A stretch of DNA of 64,000 nucleotides from Escherichia phage vB_EcoP_HC-25922 (OQ555404.1); one strand, 5' to 3'; shown: positions 3,388 to 56,296, counted from the stretch's first letter. A program made the numbers and translations. The notes: generated by a model from the sequence alone, not told the origin.

Positions 3388-3396
3388 TAATGTATA
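3388..3396 (+). promoter_or_regulatory. TAATGTATA promoter-like motif (candidate phage-sigma promoter)
   Basis: exact 9-mer 33 nt upstream of the ATG at 3430; same motif and spacing recur at 20077 and 35772. Confidence 0.45.
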
Positions 3397-41038: not shown

Positions 41039-41572
41039 TTATACACCCTTAGATGCAACTACACCATTACTGCCGTTGTATCGACCCTTCACTGCATAAG
41101 AGTCATCACCAGCGTGAGAGTGTTCGAACATAACCATTTGACCAACACGCATCCCAGCACGAACTCGTAAGCTATGATTATGGGTAACGTTATGAAATTC
41201 AAAGGTTAGTTTACTGCTGTTAAACCCTGCATCAGCCCAACCAGCATGGAGGTGGTTTAAACCACAACGAGCCATTGAGGAGCGAAGTACAAACAGGCTT
41301 GAGATGTTATCTGGAAGGTTAAACTCTTCCATTGAGTGCGCTAAGAAGAATTGCCCCGGAGTGATAACAATACCATCTTCAGGGATTTTTACTTCTTTCC
41401 ACTTGAGGTTTTCTTTAGCATCAATGTCAACAATTCCGTCAGCCTGTTCTTCAACAAGGATAGTATCACCAATACGGATATCCACGCTAGCAGCGTTAAC
41501 ATATTTATGCTCCGCATCTAAAAAGCCATTATCAATAACGCTGTGTAATTCTTGAGAACCTAAAAGACTCAT
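41039..41572 (-). CDS. dcd: dCTP deaminase family protein
   Basis: ASVDIRIG and RSSMARCGL blocks and the C-terminal YNGSNGVVAS region parallel bacterial Dcd. Confidence 0.65.
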   Translation of the reverse strand: MSLLGSQELHSVIDNGFLDAEHKYVNAASVDIRIGDTILVEEQADGIVDIDAKENLKWKEVKIPEDGIVITPGQFFLAHSMEEFNLPDNISSLFVLRSSMARCGLNHLHAGWADAGFNSSKLTFEFHNVTHNHSLRVRAGMRVGQMVMFEHSHAGDDSYAVKGRYNGSNGVVASKGV

Positions 41573-43032
41573 GAGTTTCTGTTTCCTTGTACAGATGATG
41601 CCAAATTATTAATCATGTTACGAGCTGTTTCACGAGATAGTGTAACACCTGCTAAGTTGTTATGAAGCTCACCAGATAGCTCACGAGCAGCAGCTCGAAG
41701 TTCTGTACCAAGTGTAGTATCGGAGTGAGCCAAACCATTACGACGACTATAAGGTCGAGGAGCTTCGTTAGCGTCATTAGCCAATGATGCAAAACCAATA
41801 TGAGCAGCTTCACGAGCCGCTATAGTTGACACTCGATCTTCCGTAGGGGTTGGCAAATCACCAACTTCTACACGTTCTATATCACCAGCACGTAGACCCT
41901 GAACGACTGAGCTTACTGTTTCCCATGAACGACGAGAACGCTGTAAATCACCCATTGACGGAGAAGAAGCAGGTCGAACAGTTACTCCACCTGTATCATG
42001 AGTGACATGCCATGTACGAGTATCCATTCCAGAAGAGCGTGCACTACCAAAACTGCCAGTGAAAGTGTCACGAGGTGCCATTGTAGGAGGAACTGCGAAT
42101 CTTTCCTGTTGCCAAGAATCGCGTCTGTTAGTTCCCGGAGTCCAAGGCTGCGTGATTGCTTCAGCACCTATAGTGGTTAATCCGCTAGACCATTCTGTCT
42201 GTAGGTTAACTTCCTCGTCCAGATAACTACGACCCCTTTCCTGAGGAATGTTTAATATAGTTTCCATCATCTTCAGGGTATAATGACGACGCTGATTCTG
42301 ATATAAATTTACACCAGCCATAGGTCCAACTAAATCACTAATCAGGTGAACTTCTGGCTCACCGAAAGCTCCCATTGCAAGGTGCATATATTCGATAGAA
42401 CTGCTATAAACTGCAACAGTTGCTTCAGGCCACTTTTTGTGAACATACTTCATTTCACGACTAGATACCACAGGAATGTCACGAGTGTATGACATTGCAA
42501 ACAAACCTTCGTTTGACACATACATGTCATCAAGAGACATGAACCCCTGACAGATCATAGGAAAGCGACGGCTTAAAGTATCCATATCCAAAGGTAGATT
42601 AATCATCATCTGGATTTTAACTTGATCAATCTCAATTTCCAGAATCTCTTGGAAAGTGAAAAGTGATTCAGTATAGGTTGTTCCACTGATAGGCTGAACT
42701 AGTCGAGATGTAACTTGAAGCCCCTTACTCTCTGTCCAAGACAAGAAGTTGTCAAGGAATAGTGCAGCATTACTTACGTTAGCAGGGCTGTTTTCCTGAC
42801 GAGTGTTCCAACGGAACCCTCCTTGAACTAGGAAGATATCAACATCATTCGGAGTTCGATTTTGGAAGAACGTATCACGGATAGCACCACCTGCAATGAC
42901 AGGATAGATACCATCAGGGACTACGTTATCTCTGATCAGATTGCGAATCAGATCAAGCCCTACGCTGAGGGCTTCTCCTTCTTGAAGGTTTAATTCAGAC
43001 AATGGAATCTTAATCATTTCTACATTTTCCAA
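41569..43032 (-). CDS. Pol-beta superfamily nucleotidyltransferase, CCA-adding/poly(A) polymerase-like head
   Basis: AGGAIRD-x9-DVD matches the GGxVRD...DxD head motif of class II tRNA nucleotidyltransferases; overlaps the exonuclease gene by 13 nt. Confidence 0.5.
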
Positions 43033-45387: not shown

Positions 45388-45594
45388 TTAGTAAAACGAT
45401 CGTATTTCTTCCCACACATCATCTTGCAAGTTTCTAAAACCCTGCAAGGTTTGCTTTGTTCTGTGAATAAATTCTTCAGAGTGCTTATCAGGTGTGAGCA
45501 TACTGACAAACTTTTCATAGCGATTAATCTTCCACCGCATCTTCAAGTAGTCAGATTCCAGCTTTCTTAACTTCTGCCTGTCAGTTACTGTCAT
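45388..45594 (-). CDS. hypothetical small protein
   Basis: start set at internal Met to reduce overlap with upstream gene. Confidence 0.3.
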   Translation of the reverse strand: MTVTDRQKLRKLESDYLKMRWKINRYEKFVSMLTPDKHSEEFIHRTKQTLQGFRNLQDDVWEEIRSFY

Positions 45595-46012
45595 CCTTCT
45601 CACCTGCCAGATATGCTGTCCAGTCACCAGATTCAACCAGAACATCTTGTTCTTCGTCGATGTGATAAATCCACGCTTCCACAGTTTCACCGCTGTCCAA
45701 TAATACTGGAATCAGTGTACGCTTGTAAAAGGTGTATGGGTTATCATTACCACGATGACCTTCCAGACCGTCATACGGACCTTCCAGACCAGCTTGGGTT
45801 GTTTCAAAGACTTCTACACGAACAGGCTTACCGTTGCTGTCATGCTCCAAAGATACACTTGGGAAGTATGCTGTGCAATACTGATACAGGTTACAGTTGT
45901 TTACTGTCCACCCTTCACCAATAGACACACCACCTGCACGAGCATTGATAGCGTGGTTGTGTTGACCTTTACGAAGAGAACCATACGTTGCAACTAATAC
46001 TTTATCAGACAT
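45581..46012 (-). CDS. gamma-glutamyl cyclotransferase-like (AIG2/GGCT fold) protein
   Basis: N-terminal VATYGSLRKGQHNH resembles the YGSL motif of the GGCT/AIG2 family. Confidence 0.45.
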   Translation of the reverse strand: MSDKVLVATYGSLRKGQHNHAINARAGGVSIGEGWTVNNCNLYQYCTAYFPSVSLEHDSNGKPVRVEVFETTQAGLEGPYDGLEGHRGNDNPYTFYKRTLIPVLLDSGETVEAWIYHIDEEQDVLVESGDWTAYLAGEKDDSN

Positions 46013-46016
46013 TACA

Positions 46017-46214
46017 TTACCTTTTGTTTAAAATTTCTTTTGTACAAGAAGTCCCGTTACACACGAGAACTGTTTGAGTTATAGAATCGACAACTGTTAC
46101 ATGGCTGCCGCATTGAGTTATGATTTGACCTCTCCCTGAATCTTTAGAGATGCATTCATCAGCGGCGATCGCTGACACACTGAATAAGGAGAGGAAAAAT
46201 AGAATCTTTTTCAT
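46017..46214 (-). CDS. small secreted Cys-rich protein
   Basis: signal-peptide-like MKKILFFLSLFSVSAIA followed by 6 Cys. Confidence 0.35.
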   Translation of the reverse strand: MKKILFFLSLFSVSAIAADECISKDSGRGQIITQCGSHVTVVDSITQTVLVCNGTSCTKEILNKR

Positions 46215-46220
46215 GGCTGC

Positions 46221-46637
46221 TTACCAATCATGTTGGAAACCAGAATATCCAGAGAAGATGATTGATCGGATTGGCTTTTCAGGGAATTCTTCAAAACATC
46301 CCTTAATGGCTTTCTTGGTTTCATCAGAAATTGACTCTTTTTCACCAAACCAATATTCTTCAAAAATATCAGAGAAGATATAAGTTCGGTATCTTTCCAA
46401 GTCATAAAAACCTTCCACTGCACTTGTAACAGCTCTACTAATTACACTTGAAGCTACAGGAAATAAGTCACCGTGTTCCAGAAACAAGCACCAACGATCA
46501 AAGAGAGGAATCTCTTCATCTTTCAGAAGACTTTCTAACTCTTCCTTTGCCTCTTTCTTGTGCTTCTCAAAGAGGTTTTTGGAATACTCTACATCTAAGA
46601 TACGACTTTTAAACATATCCAGTTTATTATTAACCAT
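46221..46637 (-). CDS. hypothetical protein
   Basis: 138 aa ORF. Confidence 0.4.
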   Translation of the reverse strand: MVNNKLDMFKSRILDVEYSKNLFEKHKKEAKEELESLLKDEEIPLFDRWCLFLEHGDLFPVASSVISRAVTSAVEGFYDLERYRTYIFSDIFEEYWFGEKESISDETKKAIKGCFEEFPEKPIRSIIFSGYSGFQHDW

Positions 46638-46694
46638 TTTACAACCTCTAGTTAAATTCGAACTAGCCTCCTCTTTCGAAGAGGCTAAAGCAAA

Positions 46695-46880
46695 TTATTC
46701 TACTTCGAAGTGTTTGATCACACCAGTCAGTACATCAGATTGGAATGTACCCACTAGCTCTGTACCTCGGAAGAAGTTAACACTTGTTCCAAGTGCTTCA
46801 AAGCGATCTGCTTGAATGTCCAGAGATTGAATATTTCCTTCTGCTGACATTGTACGAAACATGATTGTGTATTTATTCAC
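46695..46880 (-). CDS. hypothetical small protein
   Basis: 61 aa ORF. Confidence 0.3.
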   Translation of the reverse strand: MNKYTIMFRTMSAEGNIQSLDIQADRFEALGTSVNFFRGTELVGTFQSDVLTGVIKHFEVE

Positions 46881-47119
46881 AGACTTGTTACTCCCTTATC
46901 TGCTTGTGCAATTGCGATGATACGCTCAGCACATTCCATTGAATATTTATCACCTCGTTTGAGGAAGGTGATGATTGCAGAGAACTGATTACCAATCATT
47001 CTCTTATTTGTGATACCGAACTCTTCACAGAGTTGGTTGATAGCTTTACGAGAGCCTACAATCAGAGGCTCTTTTTCTTCGGTCATTCCACGGCTGATCA
47101 AATCTTCGATAGACAACAT
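46877..47119 (-). CDS. hypothetical protein
   Basis: 80 aa ORF. Confidence 0.35.
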   Translation of the reverse strand: MLSIEDLISRGMTEEKEPLIVGSRKAINQLCEEFGITNKRMIGNQFSAIITFLKRGDKYSMECAERIIAIAQADKGVTSL

Positions 47120-47145
47120 TACAAATTCCTTTTTGTTTAATTTAA

Positions 47146-48381
47146 TTACAGAGTTACTGCTACTTCGCTACCTTCAACATTTACAGACTCTAACTTGCGA
47201 GGGTTATGAATCTGGACTGGATTGACCGGAACGTTCCAACCACTGCGGTAGAAGTTACGACCATCACAGAACAGGATGACATTGGCAGACATTGCATTCG
47301 GTTGCAGGTTGTTGTGGACATGACGGATATTTGCAATCCAGTAGCCACGAGACAAAGTGTAGCCAGTAGGTGCATTACGAATAGTTTGAGTATTCATCTG
47401 ACCTTCCAGTTGCATTTCTTCAGGAACCACATCAACTGAATCAATCGGCTGTGCTACTTGTCCTTCCAGTGCAAAGTTTTCATCATCAGCACTTTCAATA
47501 TCATCCACTAACTCACCGTCTCCATCTTCAATCGGAGTCTGGTAAACCACTTTATACTGAGGAGTATAGAGAGGGTTCTGAGCTTTAACAAACTCAAGAA
47601 TGTTATGACGGTAGGTATCCAGAGTTGTACCAGTCAGGCCCGGTGCTGTATTAACTTCCAGTACCCACGCTTCTTGACCTTTGGTGATAATATCAACTGC
47701 ACCGAAATCCAGACCCATTGATTCAACAGCTTTCACTGCATTGATCAGAGAGGCGTCATTCGGAGCATCTGTGAAGGAGCTTGAGTAAACCCAGCCAGTG
47801 TGGTGATTACGAATATCTTCACGATAGTTAGGGTCTTCGCGATAACCATTGCGACGAATCTTCTTCTGAACATAGGTGATTACACCTTTGAACACATGGA
47901 CACGCCACTCACGACGTGGGCCTTGAATGCCTTTAGTGTACAGTTCAGCTCGACCAAGACCATCACCCGGTTCTACAACAACAATGCCCGAACCAGAGTG
48001 ACCAGTCAGCTCATGGCGCTCATACACAATATTACCAGTGTTTGACCACTCTTGAGCAGTCTCTTGAACATCTGTGTATTCCACAGTTTTAACACCTGCT
48101 TGGTCCATCACGCTGAAAGCACGACGTTTGTTCGCTGCCATATGTAAGGCTGCGGTACGGTTAAGGACGGTTGCAGAACCAAAGAATGATTCAGGATAGC
48201 GACGGTTCCCGTAGTTAACAACCACATCACCTTCACGAGAACGCCAGCGGCTATTCTCTGAAAGAAGACCCATCACGTTAGCATTGATGCGTTCATCACG
48301 GATAGTATCACTGATAGCAGATACTAGAGCGTTAACAGAATCAGACGGGCCATACGGAAGAACACGGATACGAGTAGTCAT
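47146..48381 (-). CDS. ATP-grasp ligase (RimK/glutathione synthetase-like)
   Basis: GHSGSGIVVV and FGAVDIITKGQEAWVLEVNTAPG match ATP-grasp nucleotide-binding motifs. Confidence 0.6.
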   Translation of the reverse strand: MTTRIRVLPYGPSDSVNALVSAISDTIRDERINANVMGLLSENSRWRSREGDVVVNYGNRRYPESFFGSATVLNRTAALHMAANKRRAFSVMDQAGVKTVEYTDVQETAQEWSNTGNIVYERHELTGHSGSGIVVVEPGDGLGRAELYTKGIQGPRREWRVHVFKGVITYVQKKIRRNGYREDPNYREDIRNHHTGWVYSSSFTDAPNDASLINAVKAVESMGLDFGAVDIITKGQEAWVLEVNTAPGLTGTTLDTYRHNILEFVKAQNPLYTPQYKVVYQTPIEDGDGELVDDIESADDENFALEGQVAQPIDSVDVVPEEMQLEGQMNTQTIRNAPTGYTLSRGYWIANIRHVHNNLQPNAMSANVILFCDGRNFYRSGWNVPVNPVQIHNPRKLESVNVEGSEVAVTL

Positions 48382-48383
48382 TT

Positions 48384-48614
48384 TTAGATACCTTTTAGTT
48401 TAAGAATTTCGTTACGACAGGATTGAATTTTAGCTTCGATTGCCCAATACTCAGCGAACATTTCGTCTTCTTGGGCATCACTTGGAGAGTCGATTAAGTT
48501 AAAAGCAAACGGATACAGCTTTCGCTGCTCCGTTACCAGTTGTTGAAGTCGGAGTTGTTGATACTCCAGCATTGTCAGGTGAGGCTTAGCTCCCTTGCTT
48601 GACATGAGGCTCAA
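48384..48614 (-). CDS. hypothetical small protein
   Basis: 76 aa ORF between ATP-grasp and GATase genes. Confidence 0.3.
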   Translation of the reverse strand: MSLMSSKGAKPHLTMLEYQQLRLQQLVTEQRKLYPFAFNLIDSPSDAQEDEMFAEYWAIEAKIQSCRNEILKLKGI

Positions 48615-48819
48615 CTTTAATCCCCTTCATTTTAACATAGTCAGCCAACACGTTATTGATAACGGTTGGAAAAGGGATTTCTACTGGAGAGTCAACCAGC
48701 TTCCCAATACCTTCTTGCATCCACTTCTGGATTGCTCGGAGGTTATCACATCCTGTGCTTGTCATCGGAATACGGCGGGTAGTTACCACGTTATCCAACA
48801 TCAGTTTACGAACTTCCAT
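48586..48819 (-). CDS. hypothetical small protein
   Basis: 77 aa ORF overlapping the previous one by 29 nt. Confidence 0.3.
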   Translation of the reverse strand: MEVRKLMLDNVVTTRRIPMTSTGCDNLRAIQKWMQEGIGKLVDSPVEIPFPTVINNVLADYVKMKGIKVEPHVKQGS

Positions 48820-48830
48820 AACTATACCTC

Positions 48831-50864
48831 TTAGTGTTTACCTTTACAGTAATCTGAATTACAGATCACCCTGTTTTCTTTGTTCAGTGAGCAAGTTTCT
48901 GCATCACGCCACGGAATTTGTTTATAACAGACTGCACAAAACCCAATTGAAGTCCAGAGGGCTTTTGTAAACTCAGCTGTTCGTTGTCCATCGTAACTGA
49001 CAACTGTTTTTCGGAGAGAGGTTGACTTTTCTGGAAATGTCTCCGCTTTCTCAGCGGGTACCTCCTTTGGGGCATTCTTTGGACCATAAACAGAGATGGC
49101 ATAAGTATCACCACCACGTTTTTCCAAATACGAATTAGGAACATCTGCAAGTGTGATGTCCCCTGAACGTTTTGCTGAGCTGACCATTACAATCATACGG
49201 CTAAGCATACGTTCATCAACACGAACAGCTACTTCAGGACGACGTGGGTTGGTTGTGTCTACTGCTTTAGTCCAAATATAACCTTCAGATAGAGTAACAT
49301 TCTTTACTTTATCTTTGATTTCTTTGGAGCAGATATAACAAACGTCTTCACCACGAAGTTTACTCATTTCGTTGTCAAACTCGAAATCAGTCTTGACTTC
49401 ACCACAGATAGCACATACACCCAAAGGCACATCTTCTTCCTCTTCAGAGGTTTTAGATAACGCTTCGAAGCATTCTGGATGCCAGTATGCCTGATAAGCA
49501 AACACAGCCTTACGAGCATCTTTCCAGTCAATGTGCTTATCACAACCACCACAGTCACCATGAGAGTGAGATTCCCAGAACTTACGAGTGACTTCTACAC
49601 CATTCTTAGTGATGAAGGAGTCCTCTGCATCAAAAGGGATATCATCATCAAAATCAGCAGTAGTGCTTTGAGGCTCCTTATCTGTAGCATCAACAAACAG
49701 CCCTGAAGTTAGTACGAGGCGAATCATACTGTCCACTTCGGAGATACAAGCAATCGTCCCGCGATATACTACCTTTGGGTTTTCAAGAGCCTTAAGATAT
49801 TCATCTTTGGCTACGTTGTGAACATCCCCTTCGACATACTCTTGAGCTTTATCATCGTAGATGTAACCAACCATCTTACCACGATCTGTGTTGTTATAAG
49901 CATGGAACTCGTGAGGAATAATATCCACACGACCATCACGACGATAAGGAAGACCACGATCGGCAGCCAGTTTGTTCTGGTCTTCAATCGCTTTACGACG
50001 ACGAATGTCTCCGCTTGTCACGCCGGGCTTGTCGTCTTTGTTTCCGTAAATGTCGCTTGTGCTGCTGCTTGATTTGTTTGTCTGTTGGTTCTGATAAAGA
50101 GAGGAGTTCGAGTAATAGCCGCCCCAGCGACTCGTTACCGTAAAAACCGGAAGCGTGTGCTCCACCTCTTGAACCAGAGTCATACGACTGTTAGACACAT
50201 CAAAGATATACTCAGTTCCCACTTTACATTCGAAGTGGTCATTGATACGGTTCTTATGGGACTTAGAACGCTCTAAAATCCACATAAGCATAGCTTCTTC
50301 AGAAGCTCCAAACCAATCCAAACCACAGCGGGCTAGGTGGAAAGGACGCTCATCATTACGGATAATGTGAAGTGTGTTGTCTTTAGCATCATGCCAAATC
50401 AAAGTGAATGCACCATCCAGTTTTTGGATAGTCTCTGCTGCTCCAATGGTGTTAATTGAGTGGCAGATGTTTTCACTATCAACTTCGAAACGCTTACTGT
50501 CAGGAAGGAGATCTTGATCTAACAGGGTTCCATTATGAACCAGAGTAATATCCCCGTGAGTAAATGGGTGAGCATTTCGAGCATTGACAGCCCCACGAGT
50601 GGCATGTCGGCTGTGACCAACAATCCACGAAGGAGGAACTACGTAGTTCGTAAGCCCTTTGGTAATATTTGTATATTCTGTCTGGAGCATAAAAGCATAA
50701 GAAGGAAGAGCTTCTTTATAAGAGAAGACTTGCTTTTCACCTTTACGCTGACCAAACACACCAGTTGAGTGCTGTCCACGGAAAACACCAGCATACAGAA
50801 GTTGGTTGAAAATGTCCAAATCTGCTGAGGTCATGTTGCCGCCAGCTAATACGATACCACAAAT
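48831..50864 (-). CDS. class II (Ntn) glutamine amidotransferase domain protein with C-terminal Cys-rich region; probable AUU start
   Basis: NAHPF...HNG GATase II motif; extending in frame to ATT at 50862-50864 gives MCGIVLAGG with AGGTGG SD 8 nt upstream; multiple CxxC pairs in the C-terminal third. Confidence 0.55.
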   Translation of the reverse strand: MCGIVLAGGNMTSADLDIFNQLLYAGVFRGQHSTGVFGQRKGEKQVFSYKEALPSYAFMLQTEYTNITKGLTNYVVPPSWIVGHSRHATRGAVNARNAHPFTHGDITLVHNGTLLDQDLLPDSKRFEVDSENICHSINTIGAAETIQKLDGAFTLIWHDAKDNTLHIIRNDERPFHLARCGLDWFGASEEAMLMWILERSKSHKNRINDHFECKVGTEYIFDVSNSRMTLVQEVEHTLPVFTVTSRWGGYYSNSSLYQNQQTNKSSSSTSDIYGNKDDKPGVTSGDIRRRKAIEDQNKLAADRGLPYRRDGRVDIIPHEFHAYNNTDRGKMVGYIYDDKAQEYVEGDVHNVAKDEYLKALENPKVVYRGTIACISEVDSMIRLVLTSGLFVDATDKEPQSTTADFDDDIPFDAEDSFITKNGVEVTRKFWESHSHGDCGGCDKHIDWKDARKAVFAYQAYWHPECFEALSKTSEEEEDVPLGVCAICGEVKTDFEFDNEMSKLRGEDVCYICSKEIKDKVKNVTLSEGYIWTKAVDTTNPRRPEVAVRVDERMLSRMIVMVSSAKRSGDITLADVPNSYLEKRGGDTYAISVYGPKNAPKEVPAEKAETFPEKSTSLRKTVVSYDGQRTAEFTKALWTSIGFCAVCYKQIPWRDAETCSLNKENRVICNSDYCKGKH

Positions 50865-50941
50865 TTTCTAATCCACCTGAAGGGTAAACCCTTTCATCTA
50901 ATTAACCTTTAAATGCGCCCTGTATAAGAGCGCCCGTTGTG

Positions 50942-52042
50942 TTACAGCAGTCGTTCTAATTGCATTTCCAGATGGTCTGGAATATAACCAGTGACGTTAT
51001 CATCACTGCTACCTGATTCACGCATCAATGCAAACATGTGACGAATTTCACGAACCGTTGCGATTCGAGTGCTTTCAATCTGAGGGGTGTAGTAGGTCAT
51101 GATCTCTTCGTAGACACTGTTGGCATTACCGCGCACATATCCCAAGAAACCATAGAAGTCATTCATATCACGTAAGTTGATAAGGACTTCACCATCAGGG
51201 CCAGTCTGTTGCACACGAACACGACCAACCAAAGTTACAGATTGCTCACGACAGAAGAGAATATCACGAGCAAGACGATACCCTTCAGTGAGATCACTGT
51301 CTCTTGGAGTATAGTCTAGGGGTAGATGTTGAATCATAGGAGCGAAGCGCAGCTCATTCAACTTCTCAACATAAGCTTCATTGTCTAAATCTGCATATTC
51401 AACAGCCAGTTTCTTGAGAACCAAGAAGCGGTTGACCAGATTCAGAAGTTGGCTCTTTTTCCACTTCGGCTCTGAGATACGGAACTCAACAGAACCAAAT
51501 TGAGATAGAGGCAAAAGATTAAGGGAGGTATATTTATCCCAGCTATTAACAAGAGAGTGGAAGAAAGCTTCCCCGTCTCGGTTGAACGCTGACGAAGCAT
51601 TCATAACTTGTGCTTGAACGACAGCAAAAGCTGGACAGAAGTTGCTACGATAGCGATGGTATCCAGAACATTTGAACATCATCTTTTCATAGAACGTCCA
51701 TCCAAGAATAACTTTCTTAAGGATATTACTATCAGCGTCACGCATATCCATATGAACGTGAGTGGAGCAGCGCCAAGTTCCCTCGGCTCCAGAATCCTGT
51801 ACTGCTTCACTCAGATTGTTAATAGCACGAAGTAATTCTTCACCGTTGTAAGGTCGTGCACATACTAATTCACAACCATCACGAAGAGAGCCATCTTCAG
51901 TACAAACCCACATATCAGCGTCAATGTCAGTTGTACCTTCGACTTCTAACTCAATACCAACACCACACTGAAAAGCAATACTTGGATGCGGTTCAGATAA
52001 GCGAGGGTTACGGTATCCAAAAACTTGTGCTACGGTTGTCAT
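50942..52042 (-). CDS. amidoligase-family protein
   Basis: GVGIELEVEG and STHVHMDM motifs resemble the phage amidoligase family. Confidence 0.5.
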   Translation of the reverse strand: MTTVAQVFGYRNPRLSEPHPSIAFQCGVGIELEVEGTTDIDADMWVCTEDGSLRDGCELVCARPYNGEELLRAINNLSEAVQDSGAEGTWRCSTHVHMDMRDADSNILKKVILGWTFYEKMMFKCSGYHRYRSNFCPAFAVVQAQVMNASSAFNRDGEAFFHSLVNSWDKYTSLNLLPLSQFGSVEFRISEPKWKKSQLLNLVNRFLVLKKLAVEYADLDNEAYVEKLNELRFAPMIQHLPLDYTPRDSDLTEGYRLARDILFCREQSVTLVGRVRVQQTGPDGEVLINLRDMNDFYGFLGYVRGNANSVYEEIMTYYTPQIESTRIATVREIRHMFALMRESGSSDDNVTGYIPDHLEMQLERLL

Positions 52043-52665
52043 AATGATTCCACCAACTCTACATTATATGATGACAGGTCTGAAGAAATATGCTTGAACT
52101 TCTCCAGAAGGTTTAAAGATTGACGACCATTGTCGCCATAACCAGCTTCAAGAAGCACGTTTCCAACGTAAGCCCCTTTGTAATAAACTTTTCCATCGAC
52201 AGGATTGATATAGATGAAACGAGTAACCAACCCTTCAAACTCTGGATTAAACAGGTTGTACACCAAATCACCCGGAATCGAACGTCCGAGAGAAGGTGGA
52301 GTACCACGAAGTTTATTCCCCATCAAGCCTTTAGCTCGCTGACGAACAGGGTTGATATGGGTCCAGCTCACCATGTTATTGCCATGCTGAAGGTATCCTA
52401 CATCTGGAGACTCCAGAATGAGGCTGTGATCAAACACTGGGATATTACTAACAATCTGACGTTCAAACTGACCTTCGGAGTTTTTAGTCCAGCGCTCCGC
52501 CTCAAACACTAAAGACATTTCAGCGTCGTGTGAGTAGTCGTCGATATCAAAGTTACCTTGCTGACGAACATCAAGCACATATAGAGGGAGGTTTTTACCA
52601 TCAGGTGATCGCTGAGCAATCCATGTTCCACAATAATAGTGTTGAAAATCTCTTAACAAGCTCAC
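52039..52665 (-). CDS. hypothetical protein
   Basis: 208 aa ORF overlapping the amidoligase start by 4 nt. Confidence 0.4.
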   Translation of the reverse strand: MSLLRDFQHYYCGTWIAQRSPDGKNLPLYVLDVRQQGNFDIDDYSHDAEMSLVFEAERWTKNSEGQFERQIVSNIPVFDHSLILESPDVGYLQHGNNMVSWTHINPVRQRAKGLMGNKLRGTPPSLGRSIPGDLVYNLFNPEFEGLVTRFIYINPVDGKVYYKGAYVGNVLLEAGYGDNGRQSLNLLEKFKHISSDLSSYNVELVESL

Positions 52666-52674
52666 AATATCACC

Positions 52675-53481
52675 TTATACAATCTGGAGTTTAGAGGAGA
52701 ATTTATCCGCTTCTTTAACATCGTTACTGTTGATGATGTTGTGAAGCTTTTCAATTGGAAGGCGAGAGTGAAGTGACATCAATACTTCCATATCACAGCC
52801 TTGAACAACCTTATCAACTTGCTCATAAACAAACTTGCGGGTTGACTTCTCGCCAATCCAGAAGTTAGAAAGAGAACGATATTCAATACCGTAATCTTTG
52901 TAGCGAATGGCAGAAGCCTTTCCGTATAACTCTTTACGACGAGTATCTTTATCCATGATCACAGCTGGCAAGGACAGGAAGTAATCACACAACACACCCA
53001 ACATCATTTGAGTCTGACGACTAATTTCCAGCGTACCAGTGACGCCAAGGTGAACATGACCACCAGCAGTACGCAGACCTTTGTCTGTCGCTACTGGAGA
53101 TGGGTTTTTCTGACCAGTGAAGGCGTTGAAATCAGGAGTACAACCAAATACAAAGGCTGACGGATGGAAAGATTCCATCTCTTCTGAAGTGAACACATGA
53201 GAGCTAATCCCAAGTGCTGCCTCCATGCCACGTTCATTGAGAACTTTGTTAGTCAGATCAATACCACGCTGAATGTTATCATTAAACGCTTCAAACCCTT
53301 TCTGTGGGTTAATATCGAACTCGGCCAGAACGTTGTCTTCTTGAAGACGAACATCAGGGGCCAGATCAATTTTGTTGTCTTTAGAGCAGCCCAGCTTACC
53401 AGCCACAGAGGTGATAATACCAGAAGCAGTACGAACAAACATTTCAGGGTCAGAACCAATAAGGAAAGCACGCTTAGTCAT
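52675..53481 (-). CDS. second amidoligase-like protein
   Basis: FLIGSDPEMFV and GGHVHLG parallel the motifs of 50942-52042; start set at MTKRAF. Confidence 0.35.
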   Translation of the reverse strand: MTKRAFLIGSDPEMFVRTASGIITSVAGKLGCSKDNKIDLAPDVRLQEDNVLAEFDINPQKGFEAFNDNIQRGIDLTNKVLNERGMEAALGISSHVFTSEEMESFHPSAFVFGCTPDFNAFTGQKNPSPVATDKGLRTAGGHVHLGVTGTLEISRQTQMMLGVLCDYFLSLPAVIMDKDTRRKELYGKASAIRYKDYGIEYRSLSNFWIGEKSTRKFVYEQVDKVVQGCDMEVLMSLHSRLPIEKLHNIINSNDVKEADKFSSKLQIV

Positions 53482-54424
53482 TGTAATACTCCACGAGTTC
53501 ATCAAAAAGGGAAACAACACGAGCACCAGCTTCTTCTGGTGTCATTGAGGAAGGTACTGCTTGCATCAGACGTTCGATAAAACTTCGAACAGTAATTCTG
53601 TCCATACGCTGATCTAATACTTCTCGCTTGTGACCTGCACAAGTTGACCAGAGACGTAACCACTCACTCATACTCTCATAATGGTCAGGGTCTTGGTCAC
53701 GACGACGTGCCATACGACGGAGAACTCCATCATTATGGTTTCGTACATAACCATCTCGGTTGTCATCAACACCGAATACATTCTGAACCCATACGTTTTC
53801 AGAAAATTCATCAGTGGTGCAAATTAATGGCAGAAATGCAATTGCACTCATGTCGCCATCAAAATAAGTCGCTGCTGACTCATCGGTTGAGCCTACGTCA
53901 TTACTATAACACCAGCGACCAAAGAAGTTACGACTTAAACCAGCTAAGCGTAGAGCTAAACCGATTCGTTGTCGCTTAAGCAACTCTTCCTTGTCTTGTA
54001 CGCCTTCCTGAAGGAACTCCATTCCATTAAAATCACCATCCAAATAGCTACGGATGGTCATTAGTCCAGTAAACACCTTGTCTGCTGGATGGTTTCGAAG
54101 GTTCACGGCAATGGAGTTCACCGAAGTGACAGAGAACATATCTTTATAGCAAGACATTGAGTTAAAAATATCTGTTGCTTCAACTAAAGCTCTTTCGATA
54201 TCTTTAGCTGGCACGCCATAAAAATTGTGAGGCCAGAAGTTAATAACTTCAATTTCTGAAGTTCTATCACGAAGGCTTGTTCGGTTACGACTTTCACCGT
54301 TAATGTCTGTAACAGAATACATGTGCATACAGTTAAAAGTACCAAAGCAAGCTCTTCCTTTGAACACTGACTCACCGAAATCCTCTGCCGATGTTACCGG
54401 AGCAATCGATGCGGAGATTGACAT
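53474..54424 (-). CDS. hypothetical protein
   Basis: 316 aa ORF in the amidoligase cluster. Confidence 0.4.
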   Translation of the reverse strand: MSISASIAPVTSAEDFGESVFKGRACFGTFNCMHMYSVTDINGESRNRTSLRDRTSEIEVINFWPHNFYGVPAKDIERALVEATDIFNSMSCYKDMFSVTSVNSIAVNLRNHPADKVFTGLMTIRSYLDGDFNGMEFLQEGVQDKEELLKRQRIGLALRLAGLSRNFFGRWCYSNDVGSTDESAATYFDGDMSAIAFLPLICTTDEFSENVWVQNVFGVDDNRDGYVRNHNDGVLRRMARRRDQDPDHYESMSEWLRLWSTCAGHKREVLDQRMDRITVRSFIERLMQAVPSSMTPEEAGARVVSLFDELVEYYND

Positions 54425-54432
54425 ATTCGCCT

Positions 54433-55650
54433 CTATTTATTAAAGAATAGTTTTTCCATAATGGTTTCCCACTCTTCTGAGGGGAGGGTTGAGAACCCGT
54501 TTCCGTGAAGCCTGTTTGTCATGCAACTAATAATATTGTACATGTTGTAGCTTCGGGTGGATTCTGTTCCATTGTTCCAGTTATAACCGAAAACAATTTT
54601 ATCGAAGGAGGTTTTATCCGTAGTTACTTCTCGGATAAACTCAACCAAGAGCGATTTCTCTGTGATGACCGCACGTTCACCATCTGGCAGATTGCAATAC
54701 TGAGGAAGAAGGATTGGTAAGAACATCGAATTGTTCACTCGACAATCACGAACACCTTCACTGCGATAGATTAGGCTTGAGAAGTCTTCATCACGCAGGT
54801 GTCCTTCACCTTCAGTGTATTCACACTGTCGCCACTTGGTCTGGCGAGGCTCAATCATTGTACTACCAACGCCTACTGTATACAGAGACGCTTGGAAAAT
54901 ACATGAATCGTAATCATTCCCTGTTAAAGCAACTTGCTCGTTGCCGAACACATCCACTGAAGAGTTAATCAGTCGGCTGAATGCAAGAGAGGCTAAAGGG
55001 GACCAGCCTTTCTTATACATCTTGTTCAGCATTTCATACACAGCAGATTTTTCATCATCTGTATAGAATGTACGATTCAGCATCAGATAGAACAGAGCGC
55101 GATCAGCAGGACAACCATCAGTACAAACACCCATGAATCCTACTTCATGCCATACCAGACATGAGTCAGAATCTTTATCCATGAATGCTTCAAAGGCTTC
55201 CATTACAGCCCTGTCAGTAACATCAGGACGGTTGTTTTCTTCTGCCCATGTTTCTACATGAGAAGGAGGACGAGGGTCTCCATTCTCCACCCCTTCGCGG
55301 AAATATTGAGTGGTAATAGGCTTTTTATCACCATAACGTTTTACACCATAAGCGGGAAGGTGTGTACCAGAGTTCCAGATGTACTTAATTTCGGACATAG
55401 GCATCATGTTTTCGAGAACGTTCTCTTCAGCAGTGCCTTGACGAACCATCATATTTTCACTCCACACCTTAATGCGGATATTCCAGCCGTAGTTGCTGTC
55501 ATACGTGTTATAATAATCAGGATCACCATCTTCATCTTCATCATAATCACCACCCTGATAGTAACCTGCTTTCAGGAAACCATAACAAGGAGGCCAAACA
55601 GTTACAACGTCTTCTGATTCTTTCCAGCTTTGAAGTGTTACAGGGAACAT
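54433..55650 (-). CDS. hypothetical protein
   Basis: start set at MFPVTLQ with AAAGAGG RBS, just after the upstream stop. Confidence 0.4.
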   Translation of the reverse strand: MFPVTLQSWKESEDVVTVWPPCYGFLKAGYYQGGDYDEDEDGDPDYYNTYDSNYGWNIRIKVWSENMMVRQGTAEENVLENMMPMSEIKYIWNSGTHLPAYGVKRYGDKKPITTQYFREGVENGDPRPPSHVETWAEENNRPDVTDRAVMEAFEAFMDKDSDSCLVWHEVGFMGVCTDGCPADRALFYLMLNRTFYTDDEKSAVYEMLNKMYKKGWSPLASLAFSRLINSSVDVFGNEQVALTGNDYDSCIFQASLYTVGVGSTMIEPRQTKWRQCEYTEGEGHLRDEDFSSLIYRSEGVRDCRVNNSMFLPILLPQYCNLPDGERAVITEKSLLVEFIREVTTDKTSFDKIVFGYNWNNGTESTRSYNMYNIISCMTNRLHGNGFSTLPSEEWETIMEKLFFNK

Positions 55651-55660
55651 TTTTACCTCT

Positions 55661-56023
55661 TTACTCTGATACCAGAAGGCCCAGAGATTTGCGAATGTAG
55701 TCAATACTACGGAAGTTTCGATAGTTCTCTTGGAAGCGCATCTTTTCAAATTCAGCTTCCTGAAGTTCTAACTCTGCCGCTTTATATCCCGATAAAGCTA
55801 AACTCACCACATCCTGAGGCAAGACATTACGACGGCGAATAAGATATTTATTCGCTTTTAGTTTACCTTGTGCACGAGCCATTTTGGCCTTTGCCGCCTT
55901 GATACCATGAGAAATCCAAAGCAGTTGCTGTTTCAGATCTTCCTCATCCATACCACCTAAGTCATTTGCTACTTTATGAAGCGTAGACAGGTTCACATGG
56001 CCTTTAATGGGGCGTAGGTTCAT
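55661..56023 (-). CDS. hypothetical protein (helical, basic)
   Basis: 120 aa ORF; its ATG overlaps the stop of the small gene 56020-56187. Confidence 0.4.
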   Translation of the reverse strand: MNLRPIKGHVNLSTLHKVANDLGGMDEEDLKQQLLWISHGIKAAKAKMARAQGKLKANKYLIRRRNVLPQDVVSLALSGYKAAELELQEAEFEKMRFQENYRNFRSIDYIRKSLGLLVSE

Positions 56024-56187
56024 AACTTCTCCTGTTTGTCACATTGATTGGTTAGCCAGTTGTAAGACCCTCTGTTATTCTTGCTTAACTCGCAAGATGC
56101 AAAAGAGTACATCCTGACAAACCCCACAGTGGCTAAGCAAATAAAGATTGCTGCCAATAAGAACTTAACTTTCAACTTATTATCCAT
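56020..56187 (-). CDS. small membrane protein (55 aa, below ORF-track cutoff)
   Basis: MDNKLKVKFLLAAIFICLATVGFV...; AAGAAGAGG RBS 5 nt upstream. Confidence 0.3.
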   Translation of the reverse strand: MDNKLKVKFLLAAIFICLATVGFVRMYSFASCELSKNNRGSYNWLTNQCDKQEKL

Positions 56188-56296
56188 ACAACCTCTTCTT
56201 TGAACTTAAAAAAGGACTCTCCTAAGAGAGCCAAGCTTTAAGGCCAATTAAATAGATATCACCCAATATCTGTGGATAACCTGCTCTTAAAATATT

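Follow-up and report, generated by a model that had tools for sequence, protein, structure and literature searches.

Iyer, Abhiman, Burroughs and Aravind (2009, Mol Biosyst; cited in PMC10580990, PMC10945688 and PMC11706807) described an amidoligase cassette of phiEco32-like phages computationally, and Hardies et al. (2013, J Virol; cited in PMC5498523 and PMC11945000) reported from phiRIO-1-like and other podophages a seven-gene 'peptidoglycan modification cassette' with the same GGCT, ATP-grasp, GATase, amidoligase and COOH-NH2 ligase enzymes, as both accounts are rendered in the citing passages. In those passages only the enzymes of the phiEco32-like cassette are mentioned, and its function (cell-wall modification, superinfection exclusion) is offered as a hypothesis. 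The published peptidoglycan role is drawn from the enzyme classes alone, and we found no experimental function for the cassette in the searchable literature.

The cassette also resembles cellular systems. The actinobacterial Dop-Pup-PafA system likewise sets two paralogous glutamine-synthetase (GS)-fold carboxylate-amine enzymes around a small non-enzymatic protein, with a chemistry of gamma-glutamyl-to-amine isopeptide formation and deamidation. The glutathione/gamma-glutamyl cycle (GshA or GCS2, GshB, GGCT/ChaC, Dug3) and the 'protecting group' pathways of ergothioneine (EgtA/EgtC) and butirosin (BtrJ/BtrG) share four enzyme classes with the cassette: a GS-fold ligase, an ATP-grasp ligase, a class II GATase-type gamma-glutamyl hydrolase and an AIG2/GGACT-type cyclotransferase. 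Glutathione is made by ATP-grasp and GS-fold ligases together; the GS-fold ligases PuuA, GCS2/YbdK and EgtA make gamma-glutamyl-amines, the class II GATase domains EgtC and Dug3 hydrolyze gamma-glutamyl compounds, and enzymes of the GGACT/BtrG type convert gamma-glutamyl-amines to 5-oxoproline. Relatives of RimK add alpha-linked glutamate.

The DNA analyzed here (the window) is a stretch of 64,000 nucleotides from Escherichia phage vB_EcoP_HC-25922 (OQ555404.1), in which a sequence-only reading had proposed a gene cluster at 45,581–55,650 as an undescribed amide-bond conjugation pathway. As the window belongs to a phiEco32-like coliphage (Gordonclarkvirinae) with 99% identity to IME267 and 4E8, the cluster had already been described, as the 'phiEco32-like' amidoligase or 'peptidoglycan modification' cassette, noted computationally between 2009 and 2013 and widespread in phages; as far as the 2009 account is quoted, genes, order and phage group are the same and there is no difference in kind. 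Pfam PF14395 takes its name from the phiEco32-type cassette, which carries annotation in GenBank records 98–99% identical to the window. The same reading had correctly stated that the co-occurrence was recognized computationally without a defined product, and what stands of its pathway is a conserved unit of amide-bond-forming and gamma-glutamyl-cleaving enzymes. What is new here is the count of the COOH-NH2 ligase in IMG/VR, the collinear order in viral loci, the division of the proteins without recognized relatives into a near-universal core member of 208 aa (here Y) and lineage-specific add-ons of 316, 405 and 120 aa, the virtual absence of the ligase family from cellular genomes, and the ATT start of the GATase, giving Met-Cys.

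Enzymes of the cassette

All of the named ORFs are present at the proposed positions of the minus strand, in one tightly packed string in which most neighboring genes overlap by 4–20 nt or sit single-digit gaps apart; a terminator-like hairpin (56232–56215) lies upstream. Genes phi32_77 to phi32_89 of phiEco32 are one-to-one homologs of window genes. The consecutive, co-oriented arrangement that had been proposed is confirmed, and profile searches bore out all five enzyme classes, with Pfam matches above cutoff for the GGCT, the GATase and both amidoligases.

The anchor gene of the cassette (52675–53481, minus strand; 268 aa) encodes a COOH-NH2 ligase type 2, a glutamine-synthetase/GCS2-like carboxylate-amine ligase that matches PF14395 (COOH-NH2_lig, 'Phage phiEco32-like COOH.NH2 ligase-type 2'; 2e-8, 34.2 bits against a cutoff of 25) and PHROG 3815 (1e-112), and the first 8 nt of its gene are shared with the gene upstream. 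Across seven lineages, E54, R137, H142, H144, E200 and R202 are among its invariant residues. The second GS-like carboxylate-amine ligase, Amidoligase_2 (50942–52042, minus strand; 366 aa), matches PF12224 (3.1e-8, 34.2 bits against a cutoff of 22) and PHROG 7469 (4e-142), with E31, E33, E35, H95, H97, E119, R130, E186 and R188 invariant. These conserved acidic, His and Arg residues are candidate catalytic positions in both ligases, such as one would expect at metal- and phosphate-binding sites. No solved close homolog of the cassette enzymes was found.

The GATase gene (48831–50864, minus strand; 677 aa) encodes a class II (Ntn) glutamine amidotransferase domain (residues ~1–200) followed by a C-terminal region of ~470 aa. 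All Pfam matches (GATase_6 at 2.6e-14; GATase_7 and GATase_4 above or near cutoff) are confined to the N-terminal ~200 residues, which match GlmS/PurF/AsnB/EgtC in NCBIfam. The start at 50864 is an ATT directly after an in-frame TAG and preceded by GGTGGA; translation from it gives M-C-G-I-V and thereby the N-terminal Cys nucleophile required by class II GATases, and the phiEco32 GATase is annotated with the same start. The motifs MCGI, GHxRxAT, NAHPF, HNG and DS are kept across lineages, and the C-terminal extension occurs in all lineages compared, although its three Cys-pair (zinc-ribbon-like) motifs are conserved only in Gordonclarkvirinae and Grimontviridae. The stop-to-stop GATase ORF has a median length of 428 aa in the viral loci.

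The ATP-grasp ligase (47146–48381, minus strand; 411 aa) combines a RimK-like domain (residues ~1–270) with a C-terminal extension of ~130 aa, absent from RimK and MptN, which matches PHROG 20552 of unknown function. On its own the protein falls short of the Pfam RimK cutoff (7.4e-4, 19.6 bits against 21); its assignment comes from an NCBIfam MptN/RimK-family match (2.4e-9, residues 71–251), PDB RimK chains (2e-3), Pfam RimK matches in 11 of 22 family members (best 3.7e-8) and an invariant ATP-grasp signature of Lys, a GHSGxG loop and D...ExN. Its best sequence matches are thus RimK, the ribosomal protein S6 poly-alpha-L-glutamate ligase, and the MptN/CofF alpha-L-glutamate ligases, with the catalytic signature conserved. 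The label 'ribosomal protein S6 glutaminyl transferase' that it bears in GenBank and PHROG is an over-annotation, the scores lying far below the equivalog cutoffs (MptN, 36.7 bits against 350; RimK, 22 against 331).

The gamma-glutamyl(amine) cyclotransferase (45581–46012, minus strand; 143 aa), a frequent but not universal member, is AIG2/GGACT-like (Pfam, 8.9e-16, 59 bits against a cutoff of 22.8; PHROG 2520, 4e-41) and has a YGSL motif and the Glu of D-G-L-E-G...Y-x-R. Its counterpart in phage SU10 (annotated 'YtfP/UPF0131') was among the early gene products that mass spectrometry detected in lysates, as were the ATP-grasp and GATase proteins (PMC4281155).

No transmembrane or signal segment was found in any core protein. 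Among the cassette members we recognized neither a DNA- or nucleotide-handling domain nor a substrate-specifying one, and Pfam and NCBIfam searches found no peptidoglycan-specific domain (Mur-ligase, UDP-sugar binding, PG-binding).

Core protein Y and accessory genes

Between the two GS-like ligases lies Y (52039–52665, minus strand), a non-enzymatic protein conserved in position and translationally coupled to Amidoligase_2. Its predicted model consists of small beta-barrels with an exposed basic loop, the most conserved element of the protein, and its weak fold neighbors are Tudor/KOW/SH3-like modules, which typically bind RNA polymerase, ribosomes or peptides. Within the Y family no Lys is conserved throughout, and an acidic residue at the C-terminus is lacking.

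Y shares with the 316-aa (53474–54424), 405-aa (54433–55650) and 120-aa (55661–56023) proteins, all on the minus strand, the lack of any Pfam or NCBIfam match, each matching only a PHROG of unknown function, in agreement with the earlier impression that they resemble nothing known. That reading had counted all four as parts of the cluster, which holds for Y; the other three are lineage-specific add-ons outside the conserved core. The 316-aa protein yields a confident structure model, yet no PDB match. The 405-aa protein, found in 8 of 79 loci and with 20 representatives among 1.84 billion proteins, has no PDB match and no hhalign link to the 316-aa protein or the ligases. The 120-aa protein is a phi32_89 homolog (PHROG 11370, 1e-59), also in 8 of 79 loci.

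The gene list had left out the small interleaved genes, all on the minus strand. A 73-aa phi32_81 homolog (48384–48605; phmmer 1.4e-24 against the phiEco32 ORF) is again specific to the lineage (8/79). A 77-aa protein between GATase and ATP-grasp ligase (48586–48819; Pfam DUF7195, 3.3e-19) is a semi-conserved accessory whose homologs occupy the corresponding place in Grimontviridae and LUZ24-like loci (20/79), and its pattern of a short beta-strand and two helices looks ribbon-helix-helix-like. Embedded in the string but outside the pathway is a homolog of phiEco32 gp79 (46877–47119; phmmer 2.6e-40 against phi32_79), a characterized RNAP-binding inhibitor of sigma70 transcription (PMC12276001, PMC8948821). 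A variable insert (46017–46637), present in 4E8 and missing from near relatives, among them Bas87 (match covering 94% of the query), encodes a 65-aa signal-peptide-like protein with a hydrophobic N-terminus (KD19 1.89) and a 138-aa DUF7020 protein (2.7e-20).

Conservation across phages

Relatives of the COOH-NH2 ligase are encoded in 311 phage records and on 530 IMG/VR viral contigs. We fetched 79 viral loci anchored on this gene and found Amidoligase_2 in all 79, the GATase in 78, the Y family in 75, the ATP-grasp ligase in 73 and the GGCT in 47. Seventy-five of the 79 have the same-strand, collinear order COOH-NH2 ligase, Y, Amidoligase_2 and GATase, followed mostly by the ATP-grasp ligase and often by the GGCT and a primase/helicase, which makes Y a near-universal core member; the triad of Y and its flanking ligases is contiguous even where loci are rearranged. 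The linkage of the COOH-NH2 ligase with its partner genes is far beyond chance, and the genes are linked in every related and many unrelated lineages; Gordonclarkvirinae, Grimontviridae, Bruynoghevirus, Zobellviridae and one crAss-like phage carry the cassette. Replication and nucleotide-metabolism genes adjoin it in every lineage. In 100,044 cellular species genomes the COOH-NH2 ligase family occurs at only 15 loci, and those long enough to judge are phage-like cassettes; the cassette is virtually phage-exclusive.

Possible functions of the cassette

We tentatively favor, as the best available explanation, a phage-exclusive, early-to-middle operon whose soluble cytoplasmic enzymes would draw on ATP, glutamate and glutamine, first to form gamma-glutamyl or amide bonds on an acceptor other than DNA and then to trim them. 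One GS-like ligase would activate a carboxylate by turning it into an acyl-phosphate, the gamma-carboxyl of Glu being the simplest choice, and join it to an acceptor amine; further amide-linked units would be attached by the other GS-like ligase and by the ATP-grasp enzyme. The GATase may provide ammonia from Gln for amidation of an activated carboxylate, or may hydrolyze an N-terminally free gamma-glutamyl group in the manner of EgtC and Dug3, while the GGACT would remove or recycle gamma-glutamyl-amine as 5-oxoproline; since the GGCT is missing from ~40% of loci, the core chemistry can do without this cleavage of gamma-glutamyl-amine. Y, coupled to Amidoligase_2, could be an adaptor, scaffold or carrier for both ligases. 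The likeliest product class would be a short peptide or amide with gamma-glutamyl groups, derived from or built on a metabolite abundant in the host cytoplasm, with the stem peptide of a peptidoglycan precursor (the Iyer and Hardies proposal) or a glutathione- or polyamine-like compound as candidate acceptors; its role would lie in host takeover or in the exclusion of superinfecting phages. Compared with the cellular gamma-glutamyl pathways, similarity is at superfamily level only, with no equivalog match; the cassette adds a second GS-fold ligase, Y and the C-terminal domain of the GATase, and lacks the thiol, aminoglycoside or other tailoring enzymes of the ergothioneine and butirosin pathways. 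The long, conserved extension at the C-terminus of the GATase, which in this lineage bears zinc-ribbon-like motifs, has no place in this scheme and speaks against it, as do the missing substrate-specifying and peptidoglycan-specific domains.

A universal, non-enzymatic protein of ~200 aa is unusual for a purely small-molecule pathway, and a macromolecular target fits it at least as well. Instead, the ligases could modify a protein of host or phage by attaching Glu or a short chain that contains it, in a PafA- or RimK-like manner, with Y as target-recognizing adaptor, carrier or target and the GATase and GGACT as erasers or recyclers of gamma-glutamyl isopeptides. The position of Y, wedged between ligases and coupled to one of them, its fold neighbors and its conserved basic loop all suggest such a role, RimK itself modifies ribosomal protein S6, and a paralogous GS-fold pair around a small protein recalls dop-pup-pafA. 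However, Y is a folded beta-barrel of about 200 aa ending in Leu, whereas Pup is a disordered tag ending in Gln/Glu; the lack of a universal Lys and of a C-terminal acidic residue, the known action of GGACT enzymes on free and not on protein-bound gamma-glutamyl-lysine and the absence of a target candidate also weigh against protein modification. The cassette further differs from pupylation in having no proteasome genes, in its extra ATP-grasp, Ntn-GATase and GGACT enzymes, and in that its two GS-like ligases belong to Pfam families other than that of PafA/Dop. Aravind and co-workers have proposed that phage ATP-grasp enzymes act on host proteins (PMC4431377), and early-class expression suits host takeover (PMC4281155); on balance we regard protein modification as rather unlikely. 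An auxiliary metabolic module, degrading gamma-glutamyl compounds and re-synthesizing amides to re-route host nitrogen, glutamine or glutathione pools into phage nucleotide and protein synthesis, would mirror the enzyme classes of the gamma-glutamyl cycle and suit the replication and nucleotide-metabolism neighbors. It seems improbable: the near absence of the COOH-NH2 ligase from cellular genomes means that it is not a borrowed host metabolic gene, the hallmark of such modules, and a universal Y with three separate ligases is excessive for simple recycling. A nitrogen-metabolism role was proposed for phage ZRK32 (PMC10945688), but from growth effects, not enzyme assays.

If the cassette attached a group derived from an amino acid to a base or dNTP, this would account for the pronounced resistance of Gordonclarkvirinae to restriction-modification. 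The window retains many EcoRV, EcoKI and EcoP1I sites, so resistance to these systems must have more behind it than site avoidance. The cassette lies immediately upstream of the primase/helicase in five phage lineages, and the zinc-ribbon-like motifs of the GATase C-terminus would also suit DNA modification, but their restriction to two groups argues against it. So does the avoidance of other sites: CCWGG occurs once against ~86 expected and PstI not at all against 18, while BamHI and GATC are depleted less strongly, which implies that restriction enzymes reach this DNA in nature. The BASEL authors favor a dCTP deaminase and a nucleotidyltransferase instead, and Pfam, PHROG and NCBIfam searches of the cassette members found no base-transferase, kinase, glycosylase, TGT/DpdA, aGPT-Pplase or hydroxymethylase-type domain. 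We consider DNA modification very improbable, and of the metabolite, protein and nucleotide outcomes that the sequence-only reading had left side by side it is the least supported, because no DNA- or nucleotide-handling domain is recognized and 11 of 16 restriction enzymes cut the genomic DNA of U17, a LUZ24-like phage that carries the cassette (PMC11945000).

The gene cluster is a known amidoligase cassette

The cluster at 45581-55650, which the sequence-only reading had proposed as its best candidate for an undescribed system, is a rediscovery of an annotated and published cassette rather than a new system. Every open reading frame listed in that reading is present, and a COOH-NH2 ligase type 2, an Amidoligase_2 protein, a class II glutamine amidotransferase (GATase), an ATP-grasp protein and an AIG2/GGCT-like protein are all encoded on one strand between 45581 and 53481, as in the phiEco32-type cassette. 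These five enzymes match phi32_77 to phi32_86 of phiEco32 one-to-one, and the wider set phi32_77 to phi32_89 consists of one-to-one homologs of window genes with their order kept. The 10-kb cassette region has matches in 98 phage records, with 99.3% identity over its full length in Escherichia phages IME267 and 4E8 and 74-89% identity in other phiEco32-like podophages (Gordonclarkvirinae). The proposal of an amide-bond pathway with an undefined product stands as a reasonable general reading, but its novelty does not, as the cassette is already published and annotated and the phage is 99% identical to database entries.

According to later papers that cite them, a cell-wall modification that prevents superinfection was proposed as the role of the phiEco32 amidoligase and GATase genes by Iyer et al. 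(2009) (PMC10580990, PMC11706807), and a 'peptidoglycan modification cassette' of seven genes, common to RIO-1, phiEco32, 7-11, PA11, tf, MR299-2, LUZ24, PaP3 and CW02, was reported by Hardies et al. (2013) (PMC5498523, PMC11945000). For phage ZRK32 a nitrogen-metabolism reading was given instead (PMC10945688). Full-text literature searches found no biochemical or genetic characterisation of the cassette, which was first noticed seventeen years ago. Nothing here will surprise a specialist; the question is a long-standing one that is now experimentally tractable, and the cassette is directly testable because phiEco32-like phages infecting engineered E. coli K-12 exist (BASEL Bas86-Bas94). To the published account we add a quantified core in which the 208-aa protein Y is a near-universal, previously unlabelled member, an anchor ligase family essentially restricted to phages, the ATT start of the GATase, the confinement of three of the four 'unknowns' to particular lineages, and a confident structural model of one of these (X2) whose predicted fold has no PDB match.

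Profile searches against Pfam, NCBIfam and PDB, together with conserved residues, upheld all five enzyme assignments of the sequence-only reading. Four of the proteins lie above Pfam's curated cutoffs, all on the minus strand: the COOH-NH2 ligase type 2 (52675-53481; PF14395, 34.2 bits against a cutoff of 25, with the Pfam name 'Phage phiEco32-like'), the Amidoligase_2 protein (50942-52042; PF12224, 34.2 bits against 22), the GATase (48831-50864) and the GGACT protein, an AIG2/GGCT-like gamma-glutamyl cyclotransferase (45581-46012; PF06094, 59 bits against 22.8). The first two are carboxylate-amine ligases of the GS/GCS2-like type, and candidate metal- or phosphate-binding residues are invariant in the family alignments of the first (E54, H142, H144, E200, R202) and the second (E31, E33, E35, H95, H97, E186, R188). 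Both 'ATYGSLRKG' and 'DGLEG...YKR' can be read in the GGACT translation, giving the substrate-binding YGSL motif and a catalytic Glu that is assigned by motif only. The RimK-like ATP-grasp protein (47146-48381, minus strand) falls slightly under the Pfam RimK cutoff when the window protein is searched alone; its assignment is backed by NCBIfam RimK/MptN-family matches and PDB RimK chains. Pfam RimK matches 11 of the 22 members of its family (best 3.7e-8), in which K85, G130, G132, K174, D230, E242 and N244 are invariant, corresponding to the ATP-grasp Lys, the Gly-rich loop and the D...E-x-N site. It does not score as the RimK equivalog responsible for S6 glutamylation (NF007764, 22 bits against 331; TIGR00768, 27.8 against 143.4). 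The cassette encodes three ATP-dependent carboxylate-amine ligases, with candidate catalytic residues kept in all of them. Comparison of the enzymes and the four unknowns with PDB chains, as single sequences and as profiles, found no close homolog of solved structure for any cassette member, and no signal peptide or transmembrane (TM) segment was found in the core proteins.

No gene between 41.5 and 58 kb of the window departs from the minus strand, and transcription therefore proceeds towards lower coordinates. The cassette genes overlap or are separated by single-digit gaps, and directly after the cluster come genes for a primase/helicase, a DNA-polymerase exonuclease subunit, a nucleotidyltransferase and a dCTP deaminase; replisome genes always adjoin the cassette. 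A scan for sigma70 promoters and terminators gave no enrichment over shuffled sequences, with the exception of one good hairpin (56232-56215). This terminator-like hairpin, the best of the region (GGCTCTCTTAGGAGAGTC followed by a T-run, 56215-56232, minus strand), lies just upstream of the gene for a 55-aa single-TM protein (56020-56187) that heads the gene string; the transcription unit holding the cassette may begin here. The exact promoter motif of the phage sigma factor gp36, tAATGTAtA, is absent from the cassette and matches only elsewhere in the window. The sequence TAATGTATA, the consensus of the middle and late gp36 promoters of phiEco32 (PMC8948821), has five exact copies in the window (at 3388, 20077, 29198, 29269 and 35772) and none in the cassette.

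The cassette is phage-exclusive and has a ligase-Y-ligase core

The COOH-NH2 ligase was detected by tblastn in 311 sequenced phage records, mainly from phages of Pseudomonas, Escherichia, Vibrio, Aeromonas, Proteus, Salmonella and Cronobacter together with one crAss-like phage, and by profile scan in at least 530 IMG/VR viral contigs. Among the carriers of the cassette are a crAss-like phage of the human gut and therapeutic phages of Pseudomonas (LUZ24-like) and E. coli (phiEco32-like). When 79 viral loci were fetched and iterated local HMMs were built for each family, Amidoligase_2 was present in all 79, the GATase in 78, the Y family (52039-52665, minus strand) in 75 and the ATP-grasp protein in 73; GGCT was found in 47 and a phage primase/helicase in 42, counts that are lowered by the many loci on truncated contigs. 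The order COOH-NH2 ligase, Y, Amidoligase_2, GATase, mostly followed by the ATP-grasp gene and then by GGCT and/or the primase/helicase, is collinear and on the same strand in 75 of the 79 loci, so that the linkage assumed by the sequence-only reading holds far beyond chance. The tightest core of the cassette is ligase, Y, ligase, a triad that, in the cassettes of the species-genome scan below, stays contiguous even where the GATase or the ATP-grasp gene has been relocated. Gene fusions between cassette families, sought as a sign of physical interaction, were not found.

A scan of one genome per species, covering 100,044 bacterial and archaeal species, gave only 15 matching loci, each on a MAG contig or a tiny scaffold; where the length allowed a judgement the same cassette is present, in several cases with the phage primase/helicase beside it. 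Because the cellular matches are so few and the judgeable ones carry a phage-like cassette, the cassette is a phage-exclusive unit and not a borrowed host operon, and the anchor enzyme of so widespread a cassette is essentially absent from cellular genomes. Cassette-bearing phage-like contigs have been binned into MAGs of Halobacteriales (L096), Methanomethylovorans (L097) and Patescibacteria (L099 and L100); if these archaeal and CPR host assignments were true (binning is unreliable), the murein-less hosts would count against the peptidoglycan hypothesis.

The GATase starts at an ATT codon

Pfam matches to GATase_6, GATase_7 and GATase_4 cover the N-terminal ~200 aa of the GATase. Its start codon, placed at 50864 in the sequence-only reading and confirmed here, is an ATT (50862-50864, minus strand) directly after an in-frame TAG, with a Shine-Dalgarno-like GGTGGA 7 nt upstream; the phiEco32 annotation uses the same ATT. 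Initiation at this codon gives the N-terminus M-C-G-I-V and with it the Cys nucleophile of an Ntn enzyme, and MCG(I/L) recurs in five of the six homologs from other lineages in the alignment; the annotated form of the sixth has no N-terminus. The ORF listing, which admits ATG, GTG and TTG only, places the start ten codons later; finders restricted to these codons yield a shortened protein without the catalytic Cys. The motifs GHxRxAT, NAHPF, HNG(T) and DS(E), which supply the residues for glutamine binding and the oxyanion known from GlmS and PurF (Arg, Asn-Gly, Asp), are also conserved in the alignment.

In homologs of every lineage the GATase domain is fused to a 200-470-aa region of undefined type, which in this lineage contains three Cys-pair motifs. 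Searches with residues ~230-677 found no family in Pfam, NCBIfam or PDB, and only weak LIM/zinc-finger-like matches. The label 'L-glutamine-D-fructose-6-phosphate aminotransferase' is consequently unsupported, there being no recognisable C-terminal synthase or acceptor domain of the GlmS, PurF, AsnB or GltB type.

Lineage-specific and accessory proteins

The four proteins of 208, 316, 405 and 120 aa that had matched nothing in the sequence-only reading remain without a Pfam or NCBIfam match and belong only to PHROGs of unknown function. Y is predicted to be folded (pLDDT 84.7), with small barrels in the model and a conserved Leu as its C-terminus. The others, X2 (316 aa, 53474-54424), X1 (405 aa, 54433-55650) and s120 (120 aa, 55661-56023), together with the 73-aa protein s73 (48384-48605), are each confined to 8-12 of the 79 loci and are lineage-specific additions of the Gordonclarkvirinae, X2 being found in Grimontviridae as well. 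X1 has 20 representatives among 1.84 billion proteins and X2 forms 23 clusters among 5.8 billion; X2 is confidently modelled, with a fold that has no PDB match. A shared 'PAD[RK]..F..LM..R' motif raised the idea that X1 and X2 are paralogs, which hhalign did not support (probability 0.5%); structural matches in BFVD, with two proteins per phage (GAP52, LAh_8), keep it alive but unproven.

The 77-aa protein s77 (48586-48819) belongs to Pfam DUF7195, looks like a small DNA-binding fold and holds the same position in Grimontviridae and LUZ24-like phages. The gene at 46877-47119 (minus strand) encodes a homolog of phiEco32 gp79, the product of a middle gene (PMC8948821) that binds RNA polymerase, inhibits or displaces sigma70, and supports and stabilises the phage sigma factor (PMC12276001, PMC8948821); it is inside the gene string and outside the pathway. 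Between the ATP-grasp and GGCT genes lies a variable insert (46017-46637, minus strand), present in 4E8 and ECBP2 and missing in Bas87, that encodes a DUF7020 protein and a 65-aa protein with a signal-peptide- or lipoprotein-like N-terminus. In other relatives (SU7, E20-1, Klyazma), HNH homing endonucleases are inserted in the matched region or the cassette.

Possible acceptors of the pathway

GS-fold ligases form gamma-glutamyl-amine bonds, the GATase domain and GGACT both recognise L-gamma-glutamyl groups whose alpha-amino group is free, and RimK relatives add alpha-linked Glu. On the basis of this enzymology, we suggest that the pathway may assemble, and then trim or recycle, gamma-glutamyl or amide-linked units on some acceptor; alternatively, the GATase could supply ammonia to amidate a ligase-activated carboxylate. 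This logic is close to that of glutathione metabolism and of gamma-glutamyl 'protecting group' pathways. Mass spectrometry of phage SU10 revealed the ATP-grasp, GATase and YtfP-like proteins, which were assigned to the early products (PMC4281155). Identification of the product or target would uncover either a phage metabolite or a change to the cell wall not seen before, or a novel kind of protein modification used in host takeover.

We tentatively favour a small peptide or metabolite as the acceptor, the published peptidoglycan-precursor idea included, at somewhat below an even chance. Pfam, PHROG and NCBIfam searches and the signal/TM scan of the core proteins revealed no component that recognises peptidoglycan or its precursors (Mur-ligase fold, UDP-MurNAc or lipid II binding, peptidoglycan-binding domain, periplasmic targeting). 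The universal presence of the non-enzymatic Y speaks for a protein target instead, an option we consider rather unlikely. One version of it, which we judge unlikely, would make the ligase-Y-ligase triad a virus-exclusive protein-conjugation machine with Y as adaptor, or as carrier via a conserved exposed basic loop or a conserved N-terminal Asp: the two GS-fold ligases would attach glutamate to a protein targeted for host takeover, on RNA polymerase or the ribosome for example, and the mark would then be extended by the ATP-grasp enzyme and taken off by the GATase and GGACT. If true, phages would have invented a post-translational system resembling Pup and RimK. The pupylation tag, however, is small, disordered and ends in Gln or Glu, and is encoded with PafA/Dop-family enzymes, whereas Y is predicted to be folded and ends in Leu; nor did s77 or s73 prove to be a small tag or carrier ending in Gln or an acidic residue. 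Simple recycling of nitrogen or glutathione is quite improbable, given the absence of the family from cells.

DNA modification and restriction

The constant position of the cassette beside replisome genes could point to a DNA or nucleotide modification, but this we regard as highly improbable. Pfam, PHROG and NCBIfam searches detected no DNA- or nucleotide-handling domain in the cassette, and no base transferase, 5-hmdU kinase, aGPT-Pplase, glycosyltransferase, TGT/DpdA or hydroxymethylase; the models of X2 (no matching fold) and Y (small barrels) show no likeness to DNA hypermodification enzymes. Moreover, the DNA of a cassette-bearing LUZ24-like phage was cut by 11 of 16 restriction enzymes (PMC11945000), and several restriction sites are strongly avoided in the window: CCWGG occurs once against ~86 expected, PstI 0 against 18 and BamHI 2 against 10, with GATC at about half, which suggests that this DNA is exposed to restriction in nature. 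EcoRV (29 against 15 expected) and CAGCAG (100 against 35) are over-represented.

Resistance of Gordonclarkvirinae to restriction-modification has been reported (PMC11990801). Many EcoRV, EcoKI and EcoP1I sites are kept in the window, so avoidance of sites alone does not account for the resistance to those systems; it is probably due to other genes. The 487-aa 'nucleotidyltransferase' (41569-43032, minus strand), so named by annotation, has no Pfam match at E up to 5; its SU10 counterpart, class II CCA-adding-like, was detected by mass spectrometry (PMC4281155). The BASEL authors suspected the nucleotidyltransferase and the adjacent dCTP deaminase to be behind a DNA modification.
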